Shown here: positions 1 to 17,219 of the stretch, one piece after another
How the letters are laid out: each line of letters starts with the position of its first letter
Numbering within the stretch: position 1 is the stretch's first letter
Source: a virus
Taxonomy: Duplodnaviria; Heunggongvirae; Uroviricota; Caudoviricetes
Virus record (IMG/VR): IMGVR_UViG_2744054854_000003
Coordinates: 1-24,011 of that record
Length of the DNA: 24,011 bases
Direction: 5' to 3' (one strand)
Program-made: the position numbers and the translations under genes
The notes under the pieces: model-generated
Database searches by the model: none
Seen by the model: the letters and a program-made list of their open reading frames with translations, nothing else
What the model was told of the DNA's origin: nothing

Positions 1-97
1 TGCTGCTCAGCTAAACAACAGACCGAGAAAGACACTGAAGTTCAAAACACCGAAAGAGATAATTGAAAGGGGTGTTGCATTGACAGATTGAATCTAC

Positions 98-433: not shown

Positions 434-747
434 GAGGGAAACGTTCAAAAGCAACCGCCGGGAAAATGAAGGCTGAAGGGCAGAAAAAAGGTTATCCGGA
501 CATGAGTCTCGATAAAGCATGCGGTATTTATCACGGCATGCGAATTGAGCTTAAAGAACCAAATGGTAAAGCCCCGACGAAAGAGCAGATCGCCTGGATG
601 CGCAGGCTTAGAGAGGAAGGTTACTACGTCGTTCTTGCGTATGGTGCAGAACAAGCGATAACCGCCATCCTGGAATACATAAGCCTTAAAAAGGGTGAGG
701 CTATTGAGCATGTATTGAACGGCGACAAGTGGTTGTATGCTGCTTAA
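434..747 (+). pseudogene. VRR-NUC-like nuclease domain protein, 5' end replaced by the IS terminus
   Basis: ORF 385-747 contains a GYPD...IELKEPNGK...Q..W segment resembling the VRR-NUC (PD-(D/E)xK) core. The first 16 codons of the ORF lie inside the IS terminal repeat, so the native N-terminus is missing. Confidence 0.4.
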
Positions 748-752
748 AATAA

Positions 753-769
753 TAAATTAATTAGTGCAT
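753..769 (-). promoter_or_regulatory. C1 operator-like site (weaker match, TTAGTGCAT variant)
   Basis: Reverse complement ATGCACTAATTAATTTA, about 13 of 17 positions matching the P1 C1 operator consensus ATTGCTCTAATAAATTT (consensus from memory). Confidence 0.3.
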
Positions 770-813
770 ATGTGCTCTTTGATATAGCGCACATTAACAT
801 CGGGAGAATAATT

Positions 814-969
814 GTGTCATCCAAGGCTAATTATGAATCGCTGGCATCGATCATGCCGCGTAATGAACAGGAAGCAGATGCTGTAGTGGACCCGGTAATC
901 GCTGAAATGAATGCTCGCCTGGAGGCTGAATTTGCAGCTGAGAATGAACATACCACCCAGGGCGACTAG
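814..969 (+). CDS. Small hypothetical protein (about 51 aa)
   Basis: GTG at 814 preceded by GGGAG with about 8 nt spacing, in frame with track ORF 772-969. No recognisable domain. Confidence 0.3.
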   Translation: MSSKANYESLASIMPRNEQEADAVVDPVIAEMNARLEAEFAAENEHTTQGD

Positions 970-1573
970 GACTGTTTTTTGTGTCGGTAGCGGTCCGTCA
1001 CTCACTCGTGAGGACTGTGCTGCTATAGAAAAAACTGGCTGTTCAATCATCGCGGTTAACAATTCCTGGCAGATGTTCGATGACATTTATGCCTTATACG
1101 CCGGTGATTTGTCATGGTGGAAGCAATACGGATCCACCATACCGGGAGGGAGATTCCGCAAAGTGACAGCCAACCTGGCGGCGGCGAAATCATTTTCGTT
1201 GGAGTACAGGCGATATTGTGGACCGGCTGAAGGGGTTAATAGCGGCGCGCAGACTATCAGTCTGGCGGCTGAATCAGGGGCTGAAGTAGTTGTATTAGTC
1301 GGCTATGACTGTTCTCTGCAAAACGGCCTTCATTGGCATGGAGCACACCCTCAAGCCCTACGGAATCCTACGCAGGTGTCTATTTCAAAATGGCAACAGC
1401 AGTTCCTGGATACCCGCAAAAAACACGCAGATTTACATATTTTGAATGCAAGTAGGAGCAGTGCAATTCAATGTTTCCCAAGAATAAATTTAGAGGCAGT
1501 GATCGCGTTATTATCGTCGGCAGTGGCCCAAGCGCCGCAAACTTTGTTGCGCCGCGCGGAGTGCCGATTATAG
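944..1573 (+). CDS. Hypothetical protein, paralogue A of a tandem pair (GSGPS...IAVN...LVGxD motifs)
   Basis: Track ORF 911-1573 with a likely start at ATG 944 (MNIPPRATRTVFCVGSGPS). Shares an ordered motif set with the next gene. A Rossmann-like or DUF115/MptE-like fold is a tentative guess only. Confidence 0.5.
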   Translation: MNIPPRATRTVFCVGSGPSLTREDCAAIEKTGCSIIAVNNSWQMFDDIYALYAGDLSWWKQYGSTIPGGRFRKVTANLAAAKSFSLEYRRYCGPAEGVNSGAQTISLAAESGAEVVVLVGYDCSLQNGLHWHGAHPQALRNPTQVSISKWQQQFLDTRKKHADLHILNASRSSAIQCFPRINLEAVIALLSSAVAQAPQTLLRRAECRL

Positions 1574-2097
1574 CGGTCAATGGGGCCATCGACTGGCTGA
1601 ACCGCGCTTCTTATTTTTTCACACTTGATCCATCGCCAGACAATATGCGGCGCGTTGGTCGTGGCCGCCGTCGCCGTGGTGTTTGTTATTGCATGGCACT
1701 ACCCGATGTTAAAGAACGTGAAGTCAGAGATGGCGTTCTGTGCTTCCGTCGTGTGGCTGAACGCGGCACAGAGCCAAAAAATACGAATTCTCCCGAGTGG
1801 TGGGCGTGGCGCTGGTCCGCACATTTCGGCCTTTGCGAAGATGAGAATGAAATTTCCAGCGGCAATAGTGCATATGGTGCTCTGAACCTGGCTTTCCATA
1901 TCGGATTCAAACATGTAGCCCTTGTGGGCGTTGACGCTACGCAAGAACTACGCGTTCACTCCGGCGGCACGCCAAAAAATCTAAGTCACCTGCCTTTGTT
2001 ATTCCAGTCTGCGCGTGAACAGATTGACGTTGTTTCATGCGGGAAAATGGGAGGTATTCCGCAGATGACTCTTAAAGAATGGCTGAAGAATACATGA
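1471..2097 (+). CDS. Hypothetical protein, paralogue B of the tandem pair, with an Arg/Gly-rich insert
   Basis: ATG 1471 preceded by AGGAG with about 11 nt spacing. Motifs [18 protein letters not shown] are present, with an extra 34-residue stretch ([12 protein letters not shown]...) relative to paralogue A. Overlaps the end of paralogue A by 103 nt in a different frame. Confidence 0.5.
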
Positions 2098-2771
2098 TGG
2101 CACCCACAATTTATCACCGTATCGACGGTACCAAATACAGGAATGTCTGGGTTGTTGGTGATCTGCATGGTTGCTACACCAGACTGATGTCCGAACTCCA
2201 TCGTGTGGATTTTGACCCGGCGCAGGATTTACTGATATCGGTCGGCGACCTTATCGATCGCGGTACTGAAAATGTCGAATGTCTGGAACTATTGCAGATG
2301 CCCTGGTTCAGGGCAGTGATGGGGAACCATGAGCGGCTGATGATTGATGCGTTAAGTCCAGATGGCAACGTGAATAACTGGCTAATGAATGGCGGACAAT
2401 GGTTCTTCATGCTGGACACTGATCAGGAAATATTAGCCTGGGCGCTGGTGGAGCTGGTAAAGCGTCTGCCCTATATCATTGAGTTGAACACCGGGCAAGA
2501 AACTATCGTTATAGCCCATGCCGACTATCCGGATAATGAATACCAATTCGGTAAGGAGGTGCCGCTTTTCAACGTTGTCTGGGCGCGCGAGCGTATCAGT
2601 GATTCGATGGATGATATTGGTGGCGAAATTTCGGGCGCAGATCGTTTTATCTTTGGTCACACTCCGGTGAAAAGCCCGAAGACATTCTGGAATCAGCAGT
2701 ATATCGACACTGGTGCCGTATTTTGCGGAAACCTGACATTGATGAAAGTGAAAGGTGATGGTGCAGCATGA
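2094..2771 (+). CDS. ppp: Ser/Thr protein phosphatase, lambda-PPase-like metallophosphoesterase
   Basis: GDLHGC, GDLIDRG, GNHE and GHTP motifs, and strong resemblance to lambda phosphatase as I remember it ([15 protein letters not shown]...). Start 2094 taken as an ATGA overlap with the upstream stop; the track start is 2079. The symbol is by analogy to P1 ppp. Confidence 0.85.
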
Positions 2772-3469
2772 AGATTGCTTTAGTTTTTCGCTCTGGTGGT
2801 GACTATAACGCTTCCGATGTGCAGTGGCTGGTTAATCAACTGCCAAAAGGCTATGAAATTATTTGCCTGACAGACCTGAAGCGTTTACATGTACCTGGCG
2901 TCAAAGTTGTCCCATTGATCAACCAGTGGCAAAAGTGCCGTGGCTGGTGGGCGAAAATCGAGTTGTTCCGACCGGATATAACAGATGATCTGTTCTATCT
3001 GGATTTGGACACAGTTATTGCCGGTGATATACGCCCAATCCTTGAGAATCCACCAACCAGCTTCACCATGCTTAGGGATTTTTACCATCCACAATATCGT
3101 GGTAGCGGTGCCCTGTGGATACCAAATAGTGTAAAAGCGCATATCTGGAGTTCATTCTGGCAAGATCCGGAAGGTTGGATTTCTCGTTGTGTCACTACTG
3201 AGTGCTGGGGTGATCAGGGGTTCTTACGGAAGGTTATGGGCGATGATACACCAGCATTTCAGGATCTGTATCCAGGATGGTTTGTAAGTTACAAGGCCGA
3301 TGTTGTGGAACCTGGTTCAAAATATGCGAGCGCGCGTTACTCCAGGGGGAATGGGGCATTACCAAAGGACTGCCGAATAATCTTTTTCCACGGCAAACCG
3401 CGACCTCGCGAAGTGTCAGAGGATTGGCTTCCCCTTATTAGCTCGTTTTTTGAGCGAGAATCAGAATAA
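2768..3469 (+). CDS. Hypothetical protein (pmgQ position), possible glycosyltransferase-like DxD motif
   Basis: 233-aa ORF whose ATG overlaps the ppp stop (ATGA). Contains YLDLDTVI, reminiscent of a nucleotide-sugar transferase DxD motif; this is weak evidence. Confidence 0.55.
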
Positions 3470-3470
3470 T

Positions 3471-3536
3471 ATTGCTCTAATAATTCCATATTTTTAAAAC
3501 GTGATGTACACTCATCACGTTTTTTATTAGAGCAAT
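3471..3536. promoter_or_regulatory. Two inverted C1 operator matches flanking a hairpin
   Basis: ATTGCTCTAATAATTCC at 3471-3487 on the plus strand, and ATTGCTCTAATAAAAAA on the minus strand at 3520-3536. Between them sits a hairpin (AAAACGTGATG / CATCACGTTTT, 3496-3523) followed by a T-run. Confidence 0.6.
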
Positions 3537-3550
3537 CCAAAAGGTGCACT

Positions 3551-3769
3551 ATGTGGCCATTCCGACGGAAATATCACTACTGGCTGATCGCCTTTGTTAC
3601 GCCGACCGGCGGTATCAGGCATGTCATCACCAGGTATCGCAACAAGAGACTCACCTTAGCCAGAATTTTACAGGCTGCCATAGGTGAGGGACTGGATACA
3701 AATTGCGTAGTCCTTCCTCCTTCATACTTAGGAAAAATGACCGAAGCACAAGCTAATACGGAACTTTGA
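3551..3769 (+). CDS. Small hypothetical protein (72 aa)
   Basis: ATG preceded by AAGGTG; ends 1 nt before the next start. No domain recognised. Confidence 0.35.
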   Translation: MWPFRRKYHYWLIAFVTPTGGIRHVITRYRNKRLTLARILQAAIGEGLDTNCVVLPPSYLGKMTEAQANTEL

Positions 3770-3770
3770 A

Positions 3771-5033
3771 ATGAGCACTTCAGCACAAAACCAATCAATC
3801 GAAAATGTATCTATCCCTGATGTCCTGAATGCCGGTATCCCGGCCATTATCCAGAACATCCGGGCCGCGCAACGCCGCGTTAGTTGTGATGACCTCACAG
3901 CACGTTTTTTTGATAATGCGGTTCAGTCAGCGGAGATGCTTCACGCACAGCTTATTGATGTTTATAACGCAGAAGCTGATAGCCATAACTCCCTGGTAGA
4001 TGCAGCTGAAAATATGCAGTTGGATCTCGGTCTGAAGGGTAAAGAAATTGAAGAGCTTCAGCTGGAAATTGAACATTTGAAACGCCAGCAACAGGACGCG
4101 ATCGACGATGCGACGCATGACGCCAACCAGCGTGCTGATAATGCCGAACGTATAAGCATTGAGCTGGAAACAAAACTCAATGAAATGACCGCGATGGTTG
4201 AACTGCGGAACTCACAGATTTCAACGCTAAAATCTCAATATAAAGAGATCATGAAACTTGATCCTTTTAACCTTGAGAAACGCTATAACAAAGCTAAAAG
4301 CGAGCGACAGGAACTGCGTAAGCAGGTCGCTGACCTTAACCAACAGCTCAAAAAAACTATTAAAGATGCAAGCGAAGCGCGCGTGGCATTTGCTAATAAA
4401 AAAGCAGAGGTTACTGCGCTGGTTAATGAGAATGCCAAATTTGCGACGCTCAAGAAGGAAATGTATGGCATTACTGAGCGCCGTTTCCCTGCAAGCAAAC
4501 TTCATCCGACGTTAGGGCAAATCTCCTTCTTCCCGCGCCTCCTGGCTTATGGGATCTCATCGCCTAAAGAGTTCAATAACGAGCGTCCTTATATCGTTTC
4601 TAAGCTGGACTTTGCTTATCAGTTCTGCTGCGACATGGGCTATGCCATTGATATCCGGATCAACGAATGGCTGATGCCAAACTTCCAGCCGTTGGCCATT
4701 TTCCGCGAGTTCCAGCCGGAAGGTTGGGTAGAGTTCTTCCATGAATTGATCTGTAAAGAGATGGAAAGCCGCCGCCCGGAACTGGTCCGTCGAGTTGAGT
4801 GGGCGCAAGAGGTTATGTTGGCAGAGGCAGAGCTGCCGTTCGAACCGGAATTTATTGATAATCTGGCAGCTAAAGGGCTGCATACCCTGTTTGATGTGGT
4901 TACCCGCCGTCATGAGCAGTTGGTTGTCGAATTGGGTTTAGAGGAAACAGCGGCAAGAAGACTTCTCGATGTTTGCTATGCACGTAGCGATGCATGGGAA
5001 AAAGAGAACGGCGGCACTATTTACGTTCGCTGA
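3771..5033 (+). CDS. Hypothetical protein with a coiled-coil-rich N-terminal half (420 aa)
   Basis: Long ORF with heptad-like charged composition in residues about 60-230 (LQLEIEHLKRQQQ..., QELRKQVADLNQQLKK). The C-terminal half is unrecognised. Confidence 0.6.
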   Translation: MSTSAQNQSIENVSIPDVLNAGIPAIIQNIRAAQRRVSCDDLTARFFDNAVQSAEMLHAQLIDVYNAEADSHNSLVDAAENMQLDLGLKGKEIEELQLEIEHLKRQQQDAIDDATHDANQRADNAERISIELETKLNEMTAMVELRNSQISTLKSQYKEIMKLDPFNLEKRYNKAKSERQELRKQVADLNQQLKKTIKDASEARVAFANKKAEVTALVNENAKFATLKKEMYGITERRFPASKLHPTLGQISFFPRLLAYGISSPKEFNNERPYIVSKLDFAYQFCCDMGYAIDIRINEWLMPNFQPLAIFREFQPEGWVEFFHELICKEMESRRPELVRRVEWAQEVMLAEAELPFEPEFIDNLAAKGLHTLFDVVTRRHEQLVVELGLEETAARRLLDVCYARSDAWEKENGGTIYVR

Positions 5034-5105
5034 TAGTTACAGTGTCACTTTTAATGCTGGTGGAGTGCTCCCACCAGCATTTTTTTCGTCCAATGAGGAG
5101 GGCAT

Positions 5106-5612
5106 TTGAGTATTTTCAATAAACACGCACACCAGGAACGTCCGTACATCGTCATAGTAGATATTGATGGGACGATATCAGAGGCAACGGAAGACAGGCT
5201 GCATTTACTTCCACCACCTGGCAAAGGTGCATTAACAGAGCACTGGAACGAGTTTAACCTTGCCTGTGACACTGATGCTCCCATCACTCCAGTTATTGAT
5301 ATGGTGCGCCAGTTATTTAACGTTTACACGGTCTGGTTTGTAACCGGGCGCTGTGAGATCGCAAGGGATAAAACACGAGCCTGGCTGCGGAAGTACGTAA
5401 CAAACGGGGCTGAGCCTTTGCTATCTATGCGTCCTGCCACCGATGACAGAAATGACGGTCCAGCAAAGATTGATCTCCTGAAGAAAATTGGTCTAAGTAA
5501 AATTGCGTTCGCGCTGGAAGATAAGATTGAAGTGGCGCGTGTGTTCAGGAGTCATGGCGTACTTACATTAATGGTCAGGGAGTATGAAAATGCGCTTCTT
5601 CATCAACAATAA
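5106..5612 (+). CDS. HAD-superfamily phosphatase-like protein
   Basis: TTG start preceded by GAGGAG with 6 nt spacing. N-terminal VIVDIDGTIS matches the HAD DxDG(T) motif I; motif II-like VWFVTGR follows. Possibly equivalent to P1 pap, by position. Confidence 0.6.
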   Translation: MSIFNKHAHQERPYIVIVDIDGTISEATEDRLHLLPPPGKGALTEHWNEFNLACDTDAPITPVIDMVRQLFNVYTVWFVTGRCEIARDKTRAWLRKYVTNGAEPLLSMRPATDDRNDGPAKIDLLKKIGLSKIAFALEDKIEVARVFRSHGVLTLMVREYENALLHQQ

Positions 5613-5628
5613 TTGTTCTAATAAATCT
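5612..5628 (+). promoter_or_regulatory. C1 operator-like site
   Basis: ATTGTTCTAATAAATCT, 15 of 17 matches to the consensus. It overlaps a possible -35 TTGATT (5627-5632) with a -10-like TAAAAA 17 bp downstream. Confidence 0.5.
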
Positions 5629-5650
5629 TGATTTTTAAAACAGAGAAAGT

Positions 5651-5683
5651 AAAAATAAAAACATGCCGCAAGGCGCGGCATGT
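5651..5683 (-). terminator. Rho-independent terminator, effective on the minus strand (hsdR operon end)
   Basis: 8-bp GC-rich stem CATGCCGC / GCGGCATG with a 5-nt loop. On the minus strand it is followed by a long U-run (plus-strand AAAAATAAAAA at 5651-5661); the plus-strand side has only TTT. Confidence 0.6.
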
Positions 5684-5710
5684 TTCCAATCAATCACAGG
5701 AGCTGAAAAT

Positions 5711-5797
5711 ATGAACACGGCATTCAAAATCATTATGGCCGCGATCTATTTCTGGCTGTTCTCTATCACTTTTGACGGCATCGTCGCGCATGGGTAA
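5711..5797 (+). CDS. Candidate small hydrophobic peptide (28 aa, MNTAFKIIMAAIYFWLFSITFDGIVAHG)
   Basis: ATG at 5711 with AGGAG at 5698-5702 (8 nt spacing). A single predicted transmembrane-length hydrophobic stretch. Below the ORF-track size cutoff; unproven. Confidence 0.3.
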   Translation: MNTAFKIIMAAIYFWLFSITFDGIVAHG

Positions 5798-5876
5798 GGG
5801 GAGTATATTAGCCATTTGGAACCCCACGAGCTCTTGCGGGTTTAATTAAGAACCCGCAAGAAAAACACGAATTGGG

Positions 5877-8800
5877 CTATATTTTTCCGCCTACGCCTTT
5901 AAACTTCTCAATAAACGAGACGATTTTCTGGAAAACTGCCTGTTTTTTCGTTTTATATTGCGGATTCAACGGACTAAGTTTTGGTAATGTTTCGTTTAAT
6001 TCTGTGCCATTTTCGGTGGCGTATTCGCGTTTTAAAGACGTGCGAATATAGCGTTTTGCTGCATCTTCATTGAGATTTTCTTCTTTTATCAATGCTTCTG
6101 CTTCACGTTGCTGTTCGCGTTGAGCAAACGTAAAGAATGCCTCAATGATACTGGCTTTGTCTGGTAAATCATCCAGGTTCGTTTGCTGAATAAAATCGAC
6201 CACCAGGCCCTCTTTCGCCCGGTTCCCCAGGCTTGAACGAATTAAGCGTTTGACCTCTTCGATCATTTCGCCCTTGCCTTTATTTTGTCTGTTGTGTTCG
6301 AAAATCAGTCCAAGGATATAATCCAGGTTTATTTCCTGAGACTTCAGCAAATCGACCTCAAAAACCACGTCATCCCAGTCAGTGGTTGATTTTTCTTTTT
6401 TATCAGCTTCTTTCTCGCGGCGCTGCCAGTCGCGAATATCGTTATAGGCAGAACGATAATCCTGAATCTTGCGATCAGCAGGGAGACGAATTGTTTGCAA
6501 TTCAGCGAACTTTTCATCATCCACATAATGTTCTGCTTTGAATTTTTCTACCGCAACAGGATCGCTAAGATCGATTTGTTGCAGGGCTTTTAGCGTGGCA
6601 AATTCATCATAGTTTTGCAGGATGTTCTCGGCACGCAGGTATTCGCCAAACAGTTTAACGAAGTCTTTCTTCTCTTTTTCACTTTCAATACTGGTAGGGT
6701 CAGGGAACCGTTGTTCCAGTTCTGAAACTACTGTCATGAAGCCGCGTTTAGCTTCACCAGTAGCAGCATCAGTAAAGCCTTCCATATACTCTGTATAACT
6801 CTTTTCTAACACCACATTTTTGGTGTTTTTGTCACCAAACAGCGTTATGGCATCAATAGTTGAGCGTTCCAGATCCCGGAAAGTGACGATATTACCGAAG
6901 GTTTTAGTTGCATCATAAATACGGTTGGTGCGGGAAAATGCCTGCATCAGGCCGTGAAAACGCAAGTTTTTATCGACGAATAGCGTGTTCAATGTTGGAG
7001 CATCGAAGCCGGTTAAAAACATCCCCACGACAATTAGCAGATCGATATCCTGATTTTTAACCCGCTGGGCTAAATCACGATAGTAGTTCTGAAAACCGTT
7101 ACTGTCGGTGCTGAAGTTAGTTTTAAAATGGCTGTTATATTCACGAATTGCAGCGTCCAGAAACTCTTTAGCACTGCTGTCCATTGCGCTGGTATCAAAA
7201 GTTTCATCGGAAATTTCACCAATGGCATTTTGTTCTTCATTAGCGGCAAAGGAGAAGATTGTCGCAACACGCAGCGGTTTATAGGTAGCCGATTTATTAG
7301 CGGCTTCCTCTTGTAACCGTTTAAACGTCGCATAATAGGCTTTTGCAGCATCCACGCTGCTTACTGCCAACATAGCATTAAAACCTTTTGAGCCAGGGAA
7401 GGTACGGTGGGTTTTCTGGCGGAAATTATTCAGAATATATTGCGTGATTTCCTGAATACGCATGGGATGAAGAAACGCCTGCTGATTTTCAGCCGCACTT
7501 AGTTTTTTCTCGTCAGTTTCTGTCTCTAAAGACTTAAACTGTGGCCGCACATCGTTGTAGTCCACCTTGAATTTGAGCACTTTTTCGTCACGAATCGCAT
7601 CGGTAATTACATACGAATGCAATTCACGACCAAATACGCTGGCGGTTGTTTCTGAGCCTAAGGCGTTTTCCGGGAAAATAGGGGTGCCGGTAAAACCAAA
7701 CTGATAATAGCGTTTGAATTTCTTCTTCAGGTTTTTCTGCGCTTCTCCAAACTGGCTGCGGTGGCATTCATCAAATATAAACACCACTTGCTGATTATAT
7801 ACAGGCAGGTCGCTTTCTGCTTTCATCAGGTTATTGAGTTTCTGAATAGTAGTGACGATAATTTTGTTATCGTCCTTATCCAGATTTCGTTTAAGGCCTG
7901 CGGTATTTTCCGAGCCGTTGACGCTGTCTGGCGAAAAACGCTGATATTCCTTCATGGTCTGGTAATCGAGGTCTTTCCTGTCGACCACAAAGAAGACTTT
8001 ATCAATAAAGTCCAGCTCTGTTGCCAGACGCGCGGCTTTAAAGCTGGTGAGGGTTTTACCAGAACCGGTAGTGTGCCAGATATACCCACCGCTTTCCGGT
8101 TTTGACCAGTTCTTCGCTGTAAAGGAACTCTTAATTTTCCACAGAATGCGCTCGGTGGCAGCAATCTGGTACGGTCGCATCACCAGTAGTGTCTGACTAC
8201 TGTCAAACACGCTGTAGTTCACCAGAACATTCAGCAGAGTATGTTTCTGGAAAAAGGTGGCGGTAAAGTCTTTGAGGTCTTTAATCAGCGTGTTGTCTGA
8301 TTTCGCCCAGTTCATGGTGAAGTCAAAACTGTTTTTATCGCGCTTTGTCGTGTTGGCAAAATAACGGGTATCGGTGCCGTTGGAAATGACGAACAGCTGC
8401 AGATACTTAAACAGGGAATTTTCGCTGTTAAAACTCTCTTTACTGTAACGATGTATCTGGTTGAAAGCCTCACGAATCGCCACCCCGCGTTTTTTTAGTT
8501 CGATTTGCACCAGCGGTAAACCATTAACCAGGATCGTGACGTCATAACGGTTAGCATGAGAACCCGTCTGTTCAAACTGCTGGATAATCTGCACCTTATT
8601 GCGCATGAGATTCTTTTTATCTATCAAATAGATGTTCTCAAGTCGCCCGTCGTCAAAAATAAAGTCGCAGATATAGTCGATATGGATTTTACGGGTTTTA
8701 TCCAGAATACCATCGCTGGGGTTGTCCAGATACTGCTCCGTGAAGCGCCGCCACTCGCTGTCATTAAACATCACACCATTGAGGCTCTGAAGCTGTTCCC

Positions 8801-8993
8801 GAACATTGGACAGCATTGCCGACTGTGATTTTACGGAAATAAATTCATAACCCTGATTCCGCAGGTCCTGAATCAGTTCACGTTCCAGGTCCGATTCGCT
8901 CTGGTAGCTGTCGCTTGTTTGCTCAGCTTTGATGTACTTATCAAGGACGATAAAGTTATTGGATTCAGCAATGGTGTGTGTTTGATGAGTCAT
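5877..8993 (-). CDS. hsdR: Type I restriction enzyme R subunit (1038 aa)
   Basis: Walker A ([12 protein letters not shown]) and DEAD-type box ([12 protein letters not shown]) helicase motifs. The length matches EcoR124I HsdR as I recall it. Has its own upstream intergenic region of 121 bp. Confidence 0.9.
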
Positions 8994-9114
8994 AGCGCAT
9001 CCTTTGTGCCGCCTGGCAAGAGCCGGAAGGGCGTTAAGAGTGACTTCCGGCGCGTAAAAAATAGTCTATATACTGACCGGGTGTTAAGGTGGCCCGATCG
9101 GTAGCAATGGTCAA

Positions 9115-10317
9115 TTAATTACTGACAGTTTCAGGTTTCGGGAAACTGAAAAGTAAATCACGGTAGTATTCGTATTGTTTCTGGCGCAACTCGATTTCAC
9201 GCGGAAGGCCTTCGGTGATGGAGTTTGTCAGGTTGTAAAATTTATCCATCGTGGCGACGATATAAAGTTGTTCATCGTATGATGGGATAGGTATTTCAAA
9301 TGCTCTCAACGATTTTAAACCTAAGTTTTTAATAGTTGAACCTGTTTTTTGATTTTCAAAATACTGTTTTGCGTAATTGGTTTGCAGGAAATAGAAAAGA
9401 TATCTAGTGTGGAGTTCAGGTGATTTAATTTTAAAATAGGCCACAGACTTACCGAGTACGATCTTCTCATTATTGTAAAAGGAAACATTTCCAATTGTGC
9501 CATTAATTGACAGGAAAACAGTATTTATTGGGTCAAAATGAATTCCGTGTTTTTTAAACATAGAATCATTAACCTTTTTTGTGTTATCGTTAAATGATAT
9601 TTTTTGATAGCCTAAATTGTTTCCATTGATAAAGAAATAATCACCGTTGGCGTCATATTCTGGAGTACCATGCAAACCGTCTCCAATTACACATAGCTCT
9701 CCTAATTTCAGACGTTTAACATCGTGGGCACCAAAACTAAATAACCGGTCGCGATAGTAGTTGTACTGTTTTTTACGCATGTTAAGCTCAGCGGTAAGCT
9801 CAGCGGTAAGTGCAGTAAATTTGTCCAGAATCCGAACGATTTCAGACTGGATGGCAAGGGATTTTTCCGGATTATCCGGGCAGGGGATTGGTACAGGTAT
9901 CTCAATTAATTGTCCTTTAGTTAATTTTGCCCTTCCTCCCCCGGTAAGGAAGGGAAGGAAATTAACGATGCATAAATAATGATATAGAAATCTAGAATGA
10001 ACTCTTTCTTTTCCTCGTACGACATGAACATGGTTGTTTGCCCAGAATTTACCAGTTGCATATTGAATTGAATAATTTTCTAAACTAGCCGAGCCATCTT
10101 CTGCAATTAAGACATATTCACCATCGTGGGTATATCCATCCACATAGTCTTGAATGTTGTTAGCACCATAATAGGGCGTCTCGCCTGCAATGCGCAAAGA
10201 GGCTTTTACTGGCTTTCTTCCATTATTCGCTATTTCGAAGAGTGAAGTATCACCAAGATTTCTCCACTCAACTTCAACCCCATCCAGCAATTTTTCCAGA
10301 TAACTTAACTCGCTCAT
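9115..10317 (-). CDS. hsdS: Type I R-M specificity subunit (400 aa), type IC-like
   Basis: Central conserved region with a TAELTAEL repeat, and the duplicated YYRD(R/L)LFSF motif at mid-protein and C-terminus, as in EcoR124-family HsdS. Its start overlaps the hsdM stop. Confidence 0.9.
9784..9816 (-). repeat. 12-bp tandem repeat (2 copies plus a degenerate third) encoding TAEL-TAEL in hsdS
   Basis: AAGCTCAGCGGT occurs twice (9784-9795 and 9796-9807), followed by AAGTGCAGT. The minus-strand translation is [11 protein letters not shown]. Confidence 0.85.
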
Positions 10318-11876
10318 TTCTGCACCTCGCAGCCTTCAATTTCAGCCACAATCGCATCAATATCTTTACGCAACAGGTCGATTTTGCTGACCGTGGTTTT
10401 CAGCTCTGCGTTCAACTCAGCAATATCGATAATTTCGCGGTTATCTTTCGCTTCCACATAGCTGCTCACCGACAGGTTATAGTCATTAGCGACAACGGTC
10501 TCAAACGCGACAGATTTCGCCAGATGAGCAACATCTTCCTTGCTGGCAAATACCTGCATAATCTGTTCGATATGGGCATCGGTCAGGGTATTGTTGTTAG
10601 TTTCTTTTTTAAACAGCTCGCTGGCATCAATAAACTGAACTTTGGTATCCGTTTTATGTTTAGACAGCACCAGAATGTTTACGGCAATAGTGGTGCCAAA
10701 GAACAGATTCGGTGCCAGTGAAATCACGGTTTCGACATAGTTATTGTCGACCAGATACTGACGGATTTTCTGCTCTGCGCCGCCACGGTAAAAAATACCC
10801 GGGAAGCAGACAATCGCAGCACGACCTTTGGCAGAAAGATAGTTCAGCGCATGTAGTACAAAGGCGAAGTCAGCTTTTGATTTGGGGGCCAGAACGCCAG
10901 CAGGGGCAAAACGTTCATCGTTAATCAGCGTCGGGTCATCACTGCCAATCCATTTCACCGAATATGGCGGGTTAGAAACGATGGCATCAAACGGTTTTTC
11001 ATCTCTGAAGTGCGGCTCAGTCAGCGTATTGCCCAGCTTGATATCAAACTTGTCGTAGTTGATGTTGTGCAAAAACATGTTCATACGCGCCAGGTTATAG
11101 GTCGTATGGTTGATCTCCTGACCAAAAAAGCCTTCTTCGATGATATGGTCATCAAACTGCTTTTTCGCCTGTAACAACAGCGAACCGGAACCTGCGGCTG
11201 GGTCGTAGATTTTGTTAACGTGGGTCTGCCCGTGCATAGCCAGTTGTGCAATCAGCTTAGAGACATGCTGCGGTGTAAAAAACTCGCCGCCTGACTTACC
11301 AGCATTCGCCGCATAGTTAGAAATCAGGAACTCATAGGCATCGCCGAACAGGTCAATCTGATGTTCGTTGAAGTCACCAAGTTTTAACCCTTCAACCCCT
11401 TTCAGAACCGCAGCCAGGCGGGCATTTTTATCCTTAACGGTGTTACCCAGGCGGTTACTGGTGGTATCGAAATCAGCAAACAAACCTTTGATGTCAGCTT
11501 CTGAAGGGTAACCGTAAGCAGAACTTTCGATAGCAACGAAGATACTGTTTAAATCTGCATTCAGTCTGTCATTGGTATTTGCTTTCGCAGCTACGTTGCA
11601 GAAAAGCTGACTTGGGTAGATGAAGTAGCCTTTAGTTTTGATGGCATCGTCTTTAATGTCATCAGTAATTACGCTGTCATCCAGTTTCGCATAACAGATA
11701 CTGTCATCACCGGCTTCAATATAGCTGGAAAAATTTTCGCTGATAAAACGGTAGAAAAGTGCGCCCAGAACGTATTGCTTAAAATCCCATCCATCGACCG
11801 AACCCCTGACATCGTTAGCAATTTGCCAGATTTGACGATGAAGCTCTGCACGTTGTTGAATACTTGTCATTTTCAT
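10314..11876 (-). CDS. hsdM: Type I R-M N6-adenine DNA methyltransferase subunit (520 aa)
   Basis: NPPY motif (SNPPYSVKW), AdoMet-binding glycine-rich motif ([10 protein letters not shown]), and a typical HsdM N-terminus. The length matches EcoR124I HsdM as recalled. Confidence 0.9.
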
Positions 11877-12015
11877 CCACTTATTTCAGGCTTATGTAAT
11901 TGGATGTGATTCTACAGCAACTTGGATGCTTTAGCAGTTCGGACATTAGGCTACGAATGACCTGCCTAGAGGTTTGTTAAGCCGCAAAGTGCTGGTGCTT
12001 TATGCCTGTGAAGTT

Positions 12016-12050
12016 TATAATTGTGTACACATAACGAGTACACGAGGTGT
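12016..12050 (+). promoter_or_regulatory. phd-doc promoter and operator region
   Basis: Perfect TATAAT at 12016-12021, immediately followed by the palindrome TGTGTACACA (12022-12031) and a second GTACAC-containing half-site. SD GAGGTG precedes the phd ATG. Confidence 0.6.
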
Positions 12051-12052
12051 TT

Positions 12053-12274
12053 ATGCAATCCATTAACTTCCGTACCGCGCGCGGCAACCTTTCTGAAGTG
12101 CTCAACAATGTTGAAGCCGGGGAAGAGGTTGAAATCACCCGCAGAGGCCGTGAGCCAGCAGTAATTGTCAGCAAGGCTACTTTCGAAGCCTACAAAAAAG
12201 CGGCGCTGGATGCTGAATTTGCATCCCTGTTTGACACCCTGGACTCCACCAACAAGGAACTGGTTAACCGATAA
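12053..12274 (+). CDS. phd: Antitoxin Phd (73 aa)
   Basis: [56 protein letters not shown]... recognised as P1 Phd. Its stop overlaps the doc start (TAATGA). Confidence 0.9.
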
Positions 12275-12654
12275 TGAGGCATATATCACCGGAAGAACTT
12301 ATTGCGCTTCATGATGCGAATATAAGCCGCTACGGCGGCCTGCCGGGAATGTCAGATCCGGGCAGGGCAGAGGCCATTATCGGGAGAGTCCAGGCCAGAG
12401 TTGTGTACGAAGAGATCACCGACCTTTTCGAAGTCTCCGCCACCTACCTGGTGGCTACTGCGAGAGGGCATATATTCAATGATGCCAATAAGCGTACCGC
12501 GCTAAACAGTGCGCTGTTATTTCTACGCCGTAACGGGGTGCAGGTATTTGATTCACCTGAACTGGCAGACCTTACTGTAGGCGCTGCGACTGGCGAGATA
12601 TCTGTATCTTCTGTCGCCGACACGTTACGTAGATTGTATGGTTCTGCGGAGTAG
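12274..12654 (+). CDS. doc: Toxin Doc (126 aa), Fic-fold kinase
   Basis: Fic motif HIFNDANKR is present. Length and position immediately after phd match P1 doc. Confidence 0.9.
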
Positions 12655-12658
12655 ATTA

Positions 12659-12838
12659 ATGGCACGCAAATACAACAAATTGTCCCGTGAAGCGTTAAAG
12701 ATGCTTCTTGATGGCGTGAGTCGCCGCAAGGTAAAGCAATACCTGGTTGGTAAGCAAATTGGAGTCAGGACCGCTATTGCTGTGTTATGCCGTCAGGAAA
12801 TGGTTGCGCTTAAACAGAGAATGCCGGGCAGCAGATAA
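12659..12838 (+). CDS. Small hypothetical protein following doc (about 59 aa, basic)
   Basis: ATG 12659 is in frame within track ORF 12638-12838 (MARKYNKLSREALKMLLDG...). Possibly pdcA, by position only. Confidence 0.4.
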   Translation: MARKYNKLSREALKMLLDGVSRRKVKQYLVGKQIGVRTAIAVLCRQEMVALKQRMPGSR

Positions 12839-12865
12839 AGCCCAATCAGTGATGAAAGGTGTGAT

Positions 12866-13909
12866 GTGAAAGCCGTAATTACTCCCTTTGTACAGAAAGA
12901 GCTTGGCCTCGCCACGTTCAAAGTGGATCAGGAGGTCAGAAAGCTGGTGGAGGCTGGCCGTAAATTTATTATGGAGCCGGTGCCGCGTGAGTTAATCGAG
13001 CACATGGAAGACGGCCTCGTTGTTACCGAGCAAACCATGGCAACAAATGAGGCGTTGCAGCCGTTTTTTAACAGCGATGAACTGTTTCGCCGTATTGGTG
13101 GAATTGACGCGCTGGTGGCGTGGTTGCGTAGGAAAGAGGGTCAATGCCAGGCCGCAGATCGTAGTTGGTGTGACAACCATATTGTCCACGCTGAACGAGA
13201 CAATAGCGCGGTGTTGTTGTGCTGGCATCACGATAACCATTATCGGATGCGTGGTTTTAATGAGCTGAAAGAAACGCTGCACAATAATCGCGTTAACTGG
13301 ATACTGGATGTCGCCCGTCAGGAAATGGGCCTTTCAAATAGCCATGATTTAAGTATTCAGGAGCTGTGCTGGTGGGCTTTCATGCGCAACATGATGCACC
13401 TGATGCCGGAAGAAGTCTGCCGCATATCAATAAATAAGATGAAGGCTACTCCGCAGGATAGCGGACCTCTGAAAGAGGCGGATATTCGCCCGTATGACGA
13501 TCGCGCTACAGCATATGTTCAGATGATGGAAGAACGCGCCGCGCCGATGCGTGCAAAAGTATGCCCTGTGGATGTTGACTCCGACCCTGGCATGGCGCAT
13601 TTCAAAATACCAAAACTGCAATCGCTAAAATTACCTGAGTACATGGACTTTGTTGCTTCCCGTCCATGCTGTGGGTGTGGAGCTGCGGGAGCTGGCGCTC
13701 ACATTACGCCTTATATCGTTCGTCATAGTCGATTATGCGCGCATGACATTTACGCAATTCCTCTGTGCCAGTCATGCCAGCGTGATATTGAGCGTGACCG
13801 CGATAATTGGGAGAAGACGCACGGTAGGTTGGCGATGCATCAACGATTGTTCTTTGATTACGCGCTTGGAGTGGGCGTTATCACAAGTCATTCGTCGAGT
13901 GTTAGATAA
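12866..13909 (+). CDS. pdcB: Hypothetical Cys/His-rich protein (347 aa), pdcB position
   Basis: GTG start preceded by AAAGGTG. Contains CDNHIVHAE...CWHHDNH and a C-terminal PCCGCG...CAHD...CQSCQ cluster suggesting a zinc-binding or HNH-like module. The symbol is by position in the P1 order (phd-doc-pdcA-pdcB-lpa) as recalled. Confidence 0.55.
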
Positions 13910-13910
13910 A

Positions 13911-13927
13911 ATTGCTCTAATGTATTG
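13911..13927 (+). promoter_or_regulatory. C1 operator upstream of lpa
   Basis: ATTGCTCTAATGTATTG; the first 11 positions match the consensus exactly. Located 70 bp upstream of the lpa ORF. Confidence 0.6.
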
Positions 13928-13997
13928 CTATTTCTTTAATCGAGGGTATTATATTCCACGTTGATTAGTTGACATGGGCTAATCAGTAGGTGACAGG

Positions 13998-14450
13998 ATG
14001 TTACTTAACTGGCAGGGACGCCACTTCATGGAAATAAATCACTCACGAATAACATCGTACGAGATTGCGGATTACATGATCCGCACTAAATCTCTTCTAT
14101 CAGCGAAAGAACTCGCAGCAATTCTTGAAAAGGAATACCCGCATCTGGATGTCGATAAGCGCGATGTTTATCTGCGCTTAAAGGCTATCGCTGTGTCTAA
14201 GTATTCGTCTGTTTTGATTGATGACAGTACACGCCCACGTAGATTTCAGATCCACTCTCTGAATCCTGAATTCTTTCGCCGTAGCCGCGCTCCGCGCCGG
14301 TTTGATGAAAAACTCCAGAATGAACTCTATATGACGCAGGACGAAAAGGAACGCCGGGAGCACCAGCCTTGGGTGATGGCGCGTCAACTTTTCAATAAGG
14401 TGGTCCGTCAGCACCGTCATTACGGTAATGCCACATCCGCACGTATCTGA
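13998..14450 (+). CDS. lpa: Late promoter activator Lpa (150 aa)
   Basis: Position immediately upstream of pacA, a C1 operator upstream, and size consistent with P1 Lpa. The start may instead be the internal ATG at 14028. Confidence 0.65.
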   Translation: MLLNWQGRHFMEINHSRITSYEIADYMIRTKSLLSAKELAAILEKEYPHLDVDKRDVYLRLKAIAVSKYSSVLIDDSTRPRRFQIHSLNPEFFRRSRAPRRFDEKLQNELYMTQDEKERREHQPWVMARQLFNKVVRQHRHYGNATSARI

Positions 14451-14535
14451 TTGATTGCTTGCCCGTTCCGGGCCTTTTGACATGTGACTTTCGTTACCCT
14501 CGCGTCAAAAAGAGTTTTTACGAAAGGAAGCATAA

Positions 14536-15729
14536 GTGACCTGGGACGATCACAAGAAGAATTTTGCTCGCCTGGCGCGAGATGGTGGTTACACCATCGC
14601 ACAGTATGCCGCCGAGTTTAATCTTAACCCTAATACCGCACGTCGTTATCTCCGTGCCTTCAAAGAAGACACCAGGACTGCGGACAGCCGCAAGCCAAAT
14701 AAGCCAGTCAGGAAGCCACTAAAAAGCATGATCATTGATCACTCTAATGATCAACATGCAGGTGATCATATTGCGGCTGAAATAGCGGAAAAACAGAGAG
14801 TTAATGCCGTTGTCAGTGCCGCAGTCGAGAATGCGAAGCGCCAAAATAAGCGCATAAATGATCGTTCGGATGATCATGACGTGATCAACCGCGCCCACCG
14901 GACCTTACGTGATCGCCTGGAACGCGACACCCTGGATGATGATGGTGAACGCTTTGAATTCGAAGCTGGCGATTACCTGATAGATAACGTTGAAGCGCGG
15001 AAGGCCGCGCGCGCTATGTTGCGTCGGTCCGGGGCCGATGTTCTGGAAACCACTCTTCTTGAAAAGTCTCTTTCTCATCTCCTTATGCTGGAGAACGCCA
15101 TGGATACGTGTATTCGCCTGGTGCAGGAAATGCGCGATCAGCAAAAAGACGATGATGAAGGTACTCCGCCTGAATACCGTATCGCGAGCATGCTAAACAG
15201 CTGTTCCGCGCAGATAAGCAGTCTGATCAACACCATTTACAGCATCCGGAATAACTATCGAAAAGAAAGCCGGGAGGCGGAAAAGCACGCTTTGTCTATG
15301 GGGCAAGCTGGCATTGTTAAGCTGGCATACGAACGAAAGCGTGAAAATAACTGGTCAGTGCTGGAAGCAGCTGAATTCATCGAGGCGCATGGCGGGAAAG
15401 TGCCGCCCCTGATGCTGGAGCAAATCAAAGCAGATCTGCGTGCTCCTAAGACAAATACCGATGATGAGGAAAGGCAAACTGCCGTCGGTGGCCCTTCTCT
15501 TGAAGATCTGGACAAAGTTGCGCGAGAACGGGCCGCCAACCGCCGCGCCGATGCTGCATTGTGGATTGAGCAACGTAGGGAAGAAATCGCCGATATCGTT
15601 GATACAGGCGGTTATGGAGATGTTGATACTGAAGGTGTATCAAACGAACCATGGCTGGAACAAGACCTGGACGAAGACGAGGAGGAAGACGAAGAAGTTA
15701 CCCGCAAGCTATACGGGGATGATGATTAA
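14536..15729 (+). CDS. pacA: Terminase small subunit PacA (397 aa), contains the pac site
   Basis: GTG start with AAAGGAAG upstream. 397 aa as in P1 PacA. The GATC-hexamer pac site lies inside it, and the acidic C-terminal tail overlaps the pacB start. Confidence 0.85.
14729..14887 (+). other. pac packaging site: two clusters of GATC hexamers (4 plus 3)
   Basis: GATC at 14730, 14737, 14749 and 14764 (left cluster) and at 14860, 14872 and 14883 (right cluster), each mostly within a TGATCA/G hexamer. This matches the known 4+3 architecture of the P1 pac site. Confidence 0.85.
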
Positions 15730-17213
15730 TGGCCAGAAGTTGCGTAACGGATCCACGTTGGCGCGAGCTGGTGGCGCTATATCGTTATGACTGGATTGCG
15801 GCCGCTGATGTTTTGTTCGGCAAAACACCTACCTGGCAGCAGGATCTGATTATTGAGTCTGTGCAGGAACAGGGTAGCAAGACATCTGTTTCGTCTGGCC
15901 ACGGTACCGGGAAATCAGACATGACTTCTATCATGATCATGTTGTTCATAATCATGTATCCCGGTGCCCGAGCCATTATCGTTGCGAACAAAATTCAGCA
16001 GGTAATGACCGGTATATTCAAGTACATCAAGATAAACTGGGCTACTGCCACCAGCCGTTTTCCATGGCTTGCTGATTATTTTGTTCTGACAGAAACCGCT
16101 TTCTATGAGGTTACTGGTAAAGGTGTATGGACTGTAGTACCGAAGGGCTTTCGTCTGGGAAGTGAAGAAGCTCTCGCCGGTGAACACGCAGATCATCTTC
16201 TGTATATTATCGATGAAGCCTCCGGTGTCAGTGATAGAGCTTTCGGTATCATCACCGGTGCTCTTACCGGACAGGATAACCGCATCTTATTGCTGTCACA
16301 GCCTACACGCCCAAGCGGCTATTTCTACGATACACACCATAAACTGGCCAAGCGTCCTGGTAACCCTGATGGCGTTTATACGGCGATCACGCTTAACAGT
16401 GAGGAATCACCGTTGGTAACGCCAGCATTTATCAAAATGAAGCTGGCGGAGTACGGCGGGCGTGATAACCCTATGTACATGATTAAGGTACGCGGCCTAT
16501 TCCCTAAATCACAGGATGGCTTCCTTCTTGGACGTGATGAGGTTGAACGTGCAACGCGGCGGAAAGTCAAGATTGCAAAAGGATGGGGCTGGCTTGCATG
16601 TGTGGACGTTGCTGGTGGTACGGGACGGGATAAGTCCGTTATCAATATCATGATGGTGTCCGGCCAGCGAAATAAACGCCGTGTAATCAACTATCGAATG
16701 CTGGAATACACAGACGTTACAGAAACGCAGCTTGCCGCCAAAATTTTCGCAGAATGTAATCCTGAGCGATTCCCAAATATCACCATAGCGATAGACGGCG
16801 ATGGCCTGGGTAAAGCAACGGCGGATCTGATGTACGAGTATTATGGTATTACCGTACAGCGCATACGCTGGGGTAAAAAGATGCATAGCCGTGAAGATAA
16901 GAGCCTGTACTTTGATAAACGTGCTTATGCCAACGTTCAAGCCGCAGAGGCCGTAAAATCTGGTCGTATGAGACTGGATAAGGGTAATGAAACTATTGAG
17001 GAAGCGTCGAAAATCCCTGTAGGGATTAACTCCGCAGGTCAATGGAAGGTGATGAGTAAGGAGGATATGAAGAAAAAACTCAACCTGCACTCACCAGACC
17101 ATTGGGATACATATTGTTTCGCTATGCTGGCGGATTATGTTCCCCAGGATGAAGTGCTTAGCGTCGAAGACGAAGCGCAGGTTGATGAAGCTCTGGCATG
17201 GCTTAATGAGTAA
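15729..17213 (+). CDS. pacB: Terminase large subunit PacB (494 aa)
   Basis: 494 aa, with its start overlapping the pacA stop (TAATG). Size and position match P1 PacB. Confidence 0.85.
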
Positions 17214-17219
17214 AAAAAA

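Follow-up and report, generated by a model that had tools for sequence, protein, structure and literature searches.

The hsd segment and its P1-like flanks

We asked what lies between the acid phosphatase gene and the phd-doc addiction module in the present P1-like element, and how it came to be there, using the window, i.e., the whole stretch of 24,011 nucleotides analysed here. As judged from sequence, the interval very probably holds a complete, apparently functional type IC restriction-modification (R-M) cassette, which is one of several alleles that occupy a locus already recognised as variable among P1-like elements.

Alignment to the P1 reference matched window positions 434-5801 to P1 79115-84482 and positions 11977-17213 to P1 87970-93206, with a DNA identity of 93-98% across these two stretches and across 18919-20487. 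Gene content is collinear with the late, packaging and immunity genes of P1 on both sides, as in a P1-like (Punavirus) genome, from pmgN to pap on the left and through phd-doc, pdcB, lpa, pacAB, c1 and cre on the right. Between these flanks, window 5802-11976 stands in place of P1 84483-87969 (pmgT-humD). The boundary features are as follows.

5106-5612, plus strand: pap, the P1 acid phosphatase gene (HAD/PNKP-type; Pfam HAD_PNKP), in the conserved left flank
5802-5876, minus strand: hsd-specific DNA 3' of hsdR, ending at the left breakpoint (5801/5802)
11877-11976, minus strand: hsd-specific DNA 5' of hsdM, where Pmod would be expected
12053-12274 and 12274-12654, plus strand: phd and doc, the addiction module, in the conserved right flank

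The initial annotation had listed nine P1 genes for this interval (pmgT-pmgV, upfM-upfO, hot, lxr and humD) and proposed that an hsd cassette had replaced them. The P1 annotation bears out this gene list, and a search of the window found no protein-level remnant of the nine genes. P1 has no hsd genes at the locus, and the alignment shows hsd between pap and phd where P1 has pmgT-humD. The neighbouring HAD phosphatase corresponds to P1 Pap (98.2% identity over 168 aa), and phd-doc adjoins the cassette as had been described, transcribed divergently from hsdM and with a Phd 100% identical to that of P1. One part of the proposal requires amendment: hsd does occupy the place of pmgT-humD, but the replaced genes are not truly backbone, as they make up what has been published as “variable region 8” in P1-like phage-plasmids (PMC9603915). 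The exchange may have run in either direction, and hsd is the commonest of the three alleles tested.

The arrangement has been known since 1997, when a P1-associated type IC hsd arrangement was reportedly first described by Tyndall et al., and it is written into the P1 GenBank record. Miscellaneous features in that record (NC_005856) show homology to the flanks of the EcoDXXI and R124/3 hsd genes stopping at the very breakpoints seen here. The breakpoints of the window map to P1 84482/84483 and 87969/87970, the right one (window 11976/11977) falling where humD has its stop codon in P1.

An intact EcoR124-like cassette

The cassette lies on the minus strand and, according to the open reading frame (ORF) list, comprises three genes and one intergenic region.

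5877-8993, minus strand: hsdR, 1038 aa, with nuclease, SF2 motor and EcoR124-type C-terminal domain
8994-9114, minus strand: hsdS-hsdR intergenic region, 121 bp, the expected position of a putative hsdR promoter (Pres)
9115-10317, minus strand: hsdS, 400 aa, with two Methylase_S domains
10314-11876, minus strand: hsdM, 520 aa, with methyltransferase motifs and a match to the EcoR124 M subunit

The subunit sizes, the overlap of hsdM with hsdS (ATGA, 4 bases) and the 121 bp that separate hsdS from hsdR all agree with the initial annotation, and the gene order and spacing are those to be expected of a type IC operon. No internal stop was present in any of the three ORFs, and PADLOC called the proteins REase_I, Specificity_I and MTase_I. 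The earlier assignment to type IC (EcoR124-like) is upheld by full-length alignments, in which HsdR (2w00) and HsdM (7bst_D) are both ~99% identical to their EcoR124 counterparts. The classical marks of such a family are subunit complementation and antibody cross-reaction among its members, along with restriction and modification of a bipartite target (PMC3874165). HsdM matches the M subunit 7bst_D at 516 of 520 residues over its entire length, scores 649 bits against TIGR00497, and carries the AdoMet motif DPAAGSG at 225 and the catalytic NPPY at 302. HsdR aligns with EcoR124I HsdR (2w00_A) over residues 1-1038 at 2287 bits, its ~99% identity being read from the ~960 residues displayed, with ~12 substitutions among them. 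Substitutions relative to EcoR124I might in principle alter hsd function.

Profile matches for HsdR include TIGR00348 (770 bits) and Pfam HSDR_N, SWI2_SNF2, T1R_D3 and EcoR124_C (E = 2e-71). Its catalytic motifs (RYDVT/IELK, GSGKT, DECH, TGTP and QAFSRTNR) were all found, with the PD-(D/E)xK nuclease residues at D151, E165 and K167 and the SF2 motor represented by GSGKT at 310 and DECH at 408. The family assignments of HsdR, HsdM and HsdS are far beyond chance. Inactivating changes, which the initial annotation had considered, were not visible in the full-length ORFs or their catalytic motifs. From the ~99% identity of HsdR and HsdM to their EcoR124I/II counterparts, we infer that the hsd genes are expressed and active.

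The window's closest known counterparts are EcoR124I and EcoR124II (plasmids R124 and R124/3), which have the same hsdM-hsdS-hsdR order with hsdR as a putatively separate unit, HsdR and HsdM ~99% identical to those of the window, and the conserved HsdS regions in common. They also resemble the window in having P1-derived DNA downstream of hsdR; however, R124/3 retains just an 84-bp P1-like stub 3' of hsdR (P1 84399-84482, according to the P1 record), whereas the window belongs to a full P1-like genome. EcoDXXI shares both breakpoints with the window: per the P1 record, P1 84263-84482 is 96% identical to DNA downstream of the EcoDXXI hsd genes, and P1 87969-88647 (phd-doc) is 98% identical to DNA upstream of them. 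EcoprrI is likewise a type IC family member, but it embeds prrC, while in the window the hsdS-hsdR gap is 121 bp of non-coding DNA and hsdM overlaps hsdS; there is no prrC, and no ORF of any kind lies between hsdS and hsdR. PrrC-type I systems have been reported from P1-like phage-plasmids (bioRxiv 10.1101/2025.09.12.675607).

A distinct pair of target-recognition domains

HsdS fits the type IC layout, in which conserved regions, including the TAEL repeat, surround two variable target-recognition domains (TRDs).

9892-10263, minus strand: TRD1, aa 19-142 of HsdS
9784-9807, minus strand: TAEL-TAEL, two tandem 12-bp repeats (ACCGCTGAGCTT), aa 171-178
9244-9729, minus strand: TRD2, aa 197-358 of HsdS

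Compared with HsdS of EcoR124 (7bst_A), which is the one type IC HsdS with a solved structure, the N-terminal, central and C-terminal blocks are identical or nearly so and the two TRDs are divergent. TAEL copy number is known to set the spacer, and TRDs reassort (PMC3874165). Two TAEL copies are the EcoR124I state and therefore predict an N6 spacer; since neither TRD is related to its EcoR124I counterpart, the target is not expected to be the GAA(N6)RTCG of that enzyme. EcoDXXI differs in having three TAEL repeats and recognizes TCA(N7)RTTC (PMC3874165). The nearest non-identical TRDs, on Acinetobacter and lactic-acid-bacteria plasmids, show ~40-58% identity and are too distant for their half-sites to be transferred to TRD1 or TRD2. 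Combined with an N6 spacer, TRD1 and TRD2 may specify a recognition sequence not yet characterised.

The two TRDs differ in distribution. TRD1 was found at ≥99% identity in 33 plasmid records, most of them from Klebsiella plasmids of ~111 kb with the same hsdM-hsdS-hsdR layout, versus just five plasmid records for TRD2 at the same threshold. Intact copies of the complete HsdS allele, 97.8-100% identical at the DNA level, are carried by at least four other plasmids, namely pE189-1, a pE148-type plasmid (AP024520) and CP103610 (97.8%), and CP081699.1 (100%).

Prevalence and probable origin of the hsd allele

At least three alternative alleles are known at the locus, including the P1 and SJ46 types. 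Junction probes recovered the pap-hsdR type from 256 PLSDB records, the P1 type from 173 and the SJ46 type from 149; the P1 reference genome thus represents a minority allele at pmgT-humD. The cassette was present at ≥80% coverage in 1127 of 5426 complete E. coli genomes (about a fifth), and 146 plasmid records covered at least 80% of the window. For the window as a whole, the closest match in the collections searched was 96.5% identical.

The same locus, breakpoints and flanks occur in phages vB_EcoM-673R5 and phi456, in pE189-1 and in the CP081699.1 plasmid. CP081699.1 shares both the cassette and the IS junction at the left end with the window at 100%, but has its own IS1 insertions right of doc that are absent here. 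Phages 673R5 and phi456 have other TRDs and three TAEL repeats rather than two; in phi456 a 1.3-kb insertion with two ORFs separates hsdM from a 5'-truncated hsdS, and the 673R5 record has hsdR and hsdM annotated in pieces. Elsewhere in its genome P1 carries the type III EcoP1I res-mod genes, as the initial annotation had noted, which are not to be assumed for the present element. The closest complete relative sharing this HsdS is pE189-1, in which what we take to be the P1 res-mod site is occupied by an IS5 and a RelA/SpoT-like gene.

The hsd allele could have been a mobile unit that entered the P1 backbone through transposition or site-specific recombination, with loss of pmgT-humD. The hsd segment does have a G+C content (0.39-0.45) below that of the flanks (0.47-0.51), and the same block of hsd ORFs is also found in unrelated settings, namely in a chromosomal leuX island, in a P4-like satellite and in conjugative plasmids, the latter matching the junction probe in PLSDB from the 84-bp P1-like stub onward only. 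On the other hand, the cassette carries neither a transposase nor an integrase, and neither direct nor inverted repeats were found at its junctions. All five hsd alleles examined (the window, 673R5, phi456, pE189-1 and CP081699) furthermore have the same breakpoints to the nucleotide, each falling exactly on a gene boundary. Base-exact sharing of this kind agrees with a single old event and later exchange through the flanks, and together with the missing transposon ends it is consistent with allele exchange by homologous recombination. We therefore consider insertion as a mobile unit unlikely; transposon insertion as the probable mechanism was dropped, as no repeats exist at the junctions.

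Most likely, then, the cassette would have a single origin and now move among P1-like elements as an allele, through homologous recombination in the flanks, with specificity diversifying as TRDs are swapped and the number of TAEL copies changes; this scenario is drawn from five hsd-bearing sequences and database counts.

Proposed function

With hsd subunits near-identical to those of EcoR124I, the cassette can be expected to follow the steps of that system. The hsdM and hsdS genes would be co-transcribed, with translation coupled through the ATGA overlap, and their products would assemble into an M2S methyltransferase acting on adenines in both strands of a bipartite target, with the two TRDs specifying the half-sites and the two TAEL repeats the gap (predicted N6). 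HsdR, made from a putative promoter of its own, would then join to give R2M2S, which would translocate DNA with ATP from unmodified sites and cut at a distance. Type IC restriction is controlled through assembly (PMC12707154). Weak binding of the second HsdR, typical of type IC, would allow safe entry into a naive host and would suit an element that spreads via infection and lysogenisation.

The position beside phd-doc invites another reading, in which the main role of hsd is to stabilise the plasmid by post-segregational killing together with the addiction module, rather than defence. The two units do adjoin and are divergently transcribed, and R-M systems have been discussed as poison-antidote elements in phage-plasmids (PMC10879196). 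Type I systems are poor killers after plasmid loss, however, because restriction alleviation and assembly-level control in type IC systems guard the host chromosome when modification lapses (PMC12707154, PMC3874165), and adjacency to phd-doc comes with the locus itself, humD being the neighbour in P1. A primarily stabilising role is accordingly unlikely. Even less probable is that the cassette no longer restricts, being either a methyltransferase-only remnant or silent: decay does happen in this hsd family, as seen in chromosomal leuX type IC copies annotated with an internal stop in hsdM and in the phi456 and 673R5 defects, and the promoter scan gave no strong consensus, but the window has three full-length ORFs with all catalytic motifs, its HsdR and HsdM are ~99% identical to active solved enzymes, and its HsdS allele has been kept intact in other plasmids.

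As a defence system, the cassette is a real but ordinary member of a textbook family, and it sits where exchange among P1-like phage-plasmids has already been documented. It illustrates how type IC systems travel on phage-plasmids beside phd-doc, and how their specificity diversifies through TAEL number and TRD reassortment, even between E. coli P1-like elements and Klebsiella plasmids. For strain engineering and phage therapy, a strain carrying the element is predicted to methylate and restrict at a bipartite site.

Predicted transcription signals and the hsdR 3' end

Promoters within the cassette were not conspicuous. A consensus promoter scan gave 8 sites versus 12.2 expected from shuffled sequence, i.e., no enrichment, with one weak sigma-70-like match in the hsdS-hsdR intergenic region (9087-9058). 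Searches for known RNA families and tRNAs returned nothing within 5600-12100, the sole matches being C4 and isrK at 17.3-17.5 kb. The DNA from the end of pap to hsdR holds the following features.

5612-5628, plus strand: equivalent of the C1 operator Op88/OpmgT, ATTGTTCTAATAAATCT, differing from P1 by a single C>T change; position transferred from the P1 annotation by base-level alignment
5612-5656, plus strand: Op88 and PpmgT promoters, from the P1 annotation, pointing to the hsdR 3' end
5656-5688, minus strand: intrinsic-terminator-like hairpin from the terminator scan, a 14-15 bp stem followed by a U-run
5712-5797, plus strand: 28-codon hydrophobic ORF (MNTAFKIIMAAIYFWLFSITFDGIVAHG) with a Shine-Dalgarno sequence, the last shared element of the left flank

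The hairpin at 5656-5688 lies within the P1-homologous flank and folds at -22.4 kcal/mol (z = -5.5); it is likely to mark the end of hsdR transcripts. A second stable hairpin, with an 11-bp stem but no U-run, lies in the hsd-specific 5802-5876 segment (~5835-5862; -26.4 kcal/mol, z = -5.0). The 28-codon ORF is conserved in an alignment of seven elements with three different alleles, SJ46 has a “membrane protein” annotated at its site, and homology to P1 stops 4 nt past its stop codon.

Elements of the P1 type that bear hsd keep PpmgT and the 28-codon ORF, both facing the 3' end of hsdR, and the likely hsdR terminator lies beyond the ORF, so that coupling by convergent transcription is possible. 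We assign a low probability to the two-part proposal that such transcription, of the C1-repressed PpmgT/Op88 unit and its 28-codon ORF against hsdR, could couple the units, and that the TRD pair with N6 may give an uncharacterised target. If the coupling were real, antisense RNA would run into hsdR once the prophage is induced, lowering restriction during phage replication; in lysogeny, read-through from hsdR would be antisense to the mRNA of the small peptide.

Organization and identity of the hsd cassette

Features of the hsd locus and its neighbours (hsd coordinates and sizes from the six-frame ORF list)
5106-5612, HAD/PNKP-type phosphatase (pap), left neighbour; 98% identical to P1 Pap
5712-5797, hydrophobic ORF of 28 codons, MNTAFKIIMAAIYFWLFSITFDGIVAHG, with a Shine-Dalgarno sequence, downstream of the C1-controlled PpmgT
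5877-8993, minus strand, hsdR, 1038 aa
8994-9114, hsdS-hsdR gap, 121 bases, non-coding
9115-10317, minus strand, hsdS, 400 aa
10314-11876, minus strand, hsdM, 520 aa
12053-12274, phd, then doc, right neighbours; Phd 100% identical to P1 Phd

As judged from its sequence, the cassette is an intact type IC system with a predicted N6 spacing. The three subunit reading frames described as intact in the initial annotation all appear in the six-frame list at the sizes stated there, with 0 internal stops; the reported hsdM/hsdS overlap amounts to 4 bases (ATGA), and the 121-bp intergenic region ahead of hsdR was recovered at 8994-9114. The 1038-aa protein scores 770 bits against the HsdR subfamily model and contains HSDR_N, SWI2/SNF2, T1R_D3 and EcoR124_C domains, the 520-aa protein scores 649 bits against the HsdM equivalog model, and the 400-aa HsdS has two Methylase_S specificity domains; PADLOC called the three REase_I, MTase_I and Specificity_I, respectively. 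HsdR has a RecB-type nuclease core (RYDVT...IELK, residues D151, E165 and K167) and the motor motifs Walker A GSGKT, DECH, TGTP and QAFSRTNR, and HsdM has DPAAGSG and NPPY.

In a search of all PDB sequences, HsdR aligned over residues 1-1038 with EcoR124I HsdR (2w00 and others; 2287 bits), with about a dozen substitutions within ~960 displayed residues, and residues 1-520 of HsdM aligned to the M subunit of EcoR124 (7bst_D), four of them being substituted. The N-terminal, central and C-terminal conserved blocks of HsdS are near-identical to those of EcoR124 HsdS, whereas neither EcoR124 target-recognition domain (TRD) is related to the two in the window (TRD1, aa 19-142; TRD2, aa 197-358). These end-to-end matches, the conserved HsdS blocks and the presence of all functional motifs uphold the earlier type IC assignment. 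No prrC gene was found in the locus, which is therefore not of the EcoprrI type.

The central block of HsdS contains TAEL twice, from two tandem copies of a 12-bp repeat. Within the family, two TAEL copies give a 6-bp spacer, as in EcoR124I (GAA N6 RTCG), and three give a 7 bp spacer, as in EcoR124II, EcoDXXI and EcoPrrI (PMC3874165; PMC12707154); the N6 prediction follows from this rule. Because the subunits are near-identical to those of EcoR124I, the mechanism whose steps are established for that family would be expected here: M2S would methylate a bipartite site on both strands, and R2M2S would translocate DNA from unmodified sites, driven by ATP, and then cleave at a distance. Complex assembly would be the point at which restriction is controlled, a cleavage-incompetent R1M2S intermediate allowing the system to establish in a naive host (PMC12707154; PMC3874165).

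The hsd cassette in place of the P1 pmgT-humD interval

The cassette lies, as first noted, between a HAD phosphatase and phd, its neighbours being a P1 Pap-like protein and phd with doc. BLAST against the P1 reference (NC_005856) aligned window 434-5801 with P1 79115-84482 (98.4%) and window 11977-17213 with P1 87970-93206, and between these flanks 3487 bp of P1 are replaced by 6175 bp (5802-11976), a segment lower in G+C than the flanks. The gene order that the initial annotation gave for this interval, pmgT-humD (pmgT-pmgV, upfM-upfO, hot, lxr and humD), is correct according to the P1 record, and tblastn detected 0 of the encoded proteins in the window, in line with their reported absence. 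With both flanks collinear and pmgT-humD swapped for hsd, the alignment supports a cassette replacement as read relative to P1. At base level both breakpoints coincide with gene boundaries, the left four bases past the stop codon of the conserved 28-codon ORF and the right at the humD stop codon; a search for direct or inverted repeats around 5802-11976 found none.

Misc_features in the P1 RefSeq/GenBank record describe P1 84263-84482 as 96% identical to DNA downstream of the EcoDXXI hsd locus, P1 84399-84482 as 98% identical to R124/3 DNA downstream of hsdR, and P1 87969-88647 as 98% identical to DNA upstream of the EcoDXXI hsd locus. The inner ends of these homologies are the window's breakpoints, and they reportedly correspond, going by its title, to a 1997 paper by Tyndall et al., which is ref. 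364 of PMC12707154. In a survey of 54 P1-like phage-plasmids, pmgT-humD is among eight regions described as highly variable (PMC9603915), and type I (PrrC-associated) and type III restriction-modification systems have been catalogued in such elements (bioRxiv 10.1101/2025.09.12.675607). The initial observation is confirmed and its interpretation supported. The variable locus is documented, and the feature is one of its alleles, very common and already known.

Prevalence

The cassette with its flanks matched 1585 PLSDB plasmid records, with the match spanning 80% or more of its length in 543, and the cassette was found at coverage of at least 80% in 1127 of 5426 complete E. coli genomes, on both chromosomes and plasmids. 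Left-junction probes of 800 bp each, searched against plasmid records, matched 256 records for pap/hsdR versus 173 for the P1-type pap/pmgT and 149 for the SJ46-type junction, and just four plasmid records contained 80% or more of the P1 pmgT-humD block; hsd is therefore the commonest of the tested alleles and the P1 reference arrangement a minority. Conjugative plasmids matched the hsd probe only from position 317 onward, which is the 84-bp stub recorded for R124/3 in the P1 record.

Chromosomal copies have the ORF block alone in common with the cassette and sit in the leuX defence island beside McrBC or in a P4-like satellite, in agreement with a review that assigns type IC systems to hotspot 37 (PMC12707154). 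Two fetched E. coli chromosomal copies (L006 4991-10974 and L007 5000-10972) match the cassette at ~95% identity, confined to the ORF block. They adjoin tRNA-Leu (leuX island) or a P4-like satellite and have DUF4942 and McrBC next to them, and in their annotation hsdM is a pseudogene containing an internal stop.

Movement and diversification of specificity

Left and right breakpoints are base-identical in the phages 673R5 and phi456, the plasmids pE189-1 and CP081699.1, and the window, that is, in all hsd-bearing elements fetched, and the flanks are kept across the hsd, P1-type and SJ46-type alleles. This uniformity and the lack of transposon features make a single ancestral event the likely origin, with later exchange of alleles by homologous recombination within the flanks.

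Variation inside the cassette falls mostly in hsdS: the majority of plasmid matches consist of three pieces that together span ~87% of the query and skip the TRD regions, and 673R5 and phi456 have different TRDs and three TAEL repeats. TRD1 occurs at 99% identity or more in 33 plasmid records, mostly Klebsiella IncFIB plasmids of ~111 kb that share the hsdM-hsdS-hsdR layout, and TRD2 in only 5. The pair is found at 100% DNA identity in CP081699.1 and at 97.8% in AP024520, AP024522 and CP103610, so this specificity allele is uncommon, not unique.

One such plasmid, Klebsiella pneumoniae p1605752FIB_2 (~111-kb IncFIB; L010 4460-10469), has hsdM-hsdS-hsdR in sizes as in the window, a TRD1 100% identical to the window's and an adjoining DUF262 gene, and the Klebsiella phage record vB_KpnS_p4727 gives an 83% match to the cassette. 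These matches suggest that separate lineages of phage-plasmids have exchanged TRDs between their type IC systems. In phi456 (L005 9651-13647), hsdM is separated from a 5'-truncated hsdS by two ORFs, one mis-annotated as a "baseplate hub protein", which suggests an insertion disrupting the specificity gene.

Transcription around hsdR

A promoter consensus scan gave no enrichment, and its single match within the hsdS-hsdR gap was weak. The likely hsdR terminator is a strong minus-strand hairpin with a U-run (5688-5656), in the P1-derived flank past the 28-codon ORF. The C1 operator and PpmgT are kept in the hsd allele and aimed into the 3' end of hsdR, and a terminator scan detected no plus-strand terminator-like site between them. 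Convergent transcription might conceivably couple HsdR expression to prophage induction, although we consider this improbable.

The 28-codon ORF is common to P1, SJ46 and all hsd alleles, lacks annotation in the P1 record, and carries G22D in the window and CP081699.1. Read-through from hsdR to the 5688-5656 terminator would be antisense to it, and there is a slight chance that such transcripts are antisense to the mRNA of a small membrane peptide encoded there. The equivalent of the C1 operator Op88 (5612-5628) shows C>T at position 5 (ATTGTTCT... in the window versus ATTGCTCT... in P1 and four other relatives), a substitution otherwise found only in CP081699.1.

Relatives and the remainder of the element

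Among the collections searched, from which the window's replicon is absent, the best whole-window match had 96.5% identity over 97% of the length, and 146 plasmid records are collinear with the window over at least 80%. The closest complete relative with the window's HsdS is pE189-1. Its mat-darB interval (L009 21515-24261), which we take to be the place of P1's type III res-mod, holds ISKpn26 (IS5-like) and a GTP pyrophosphokinase gene (RelA/SpoT, possibly CapRel-like). Since these leave no room for res-mod, the type IC genes form the sole classical restriction-modification system annotated in pE189-1, as read from an incomplete PLSDB gene table. The mat-darB position falls just past the window's right end, and similarity to relatives stops at 23813, within mat (23813-24011 lying beyond).

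The left end (1-433, and 385-747) is IS-derived DNA, with an IS3-family-type transposase OrfA (HTH_Tnp_1; 11-397, minus strand); P1 homology begins at 434 within pmgM, leaving a VRR-NUC remnant. This junction, next to IS30, is 100% identical in CP081699.1 (IncFIB/IncY), CP060750, CP080128 and other 120-145-kb plasmids. Between pacB and c1, a 1.7-kb segment (17214-18918) not in P1 looks like an extra immI-like c4-icd-ant module beside c1; 673R5 and pE189-1 carry it too, the latter with a second icd-ant set elsewhere.

Features inside the 17214-18918 segment
17234-17776, Ash/Icd-like ORF
17311-17388, isrK-like RNA
17413-17500, C4 antisense RNA
17773-18885, ORF6N+KilAC antirepressor

The RecA-dependent nuclease gene ref (22558-23111) is seemingly frameshifted, residues 1-14 and 30-186 of pE189-1 Ref matching separate reading frames in the window; this could reflect a pseudogene or a sequencing error.
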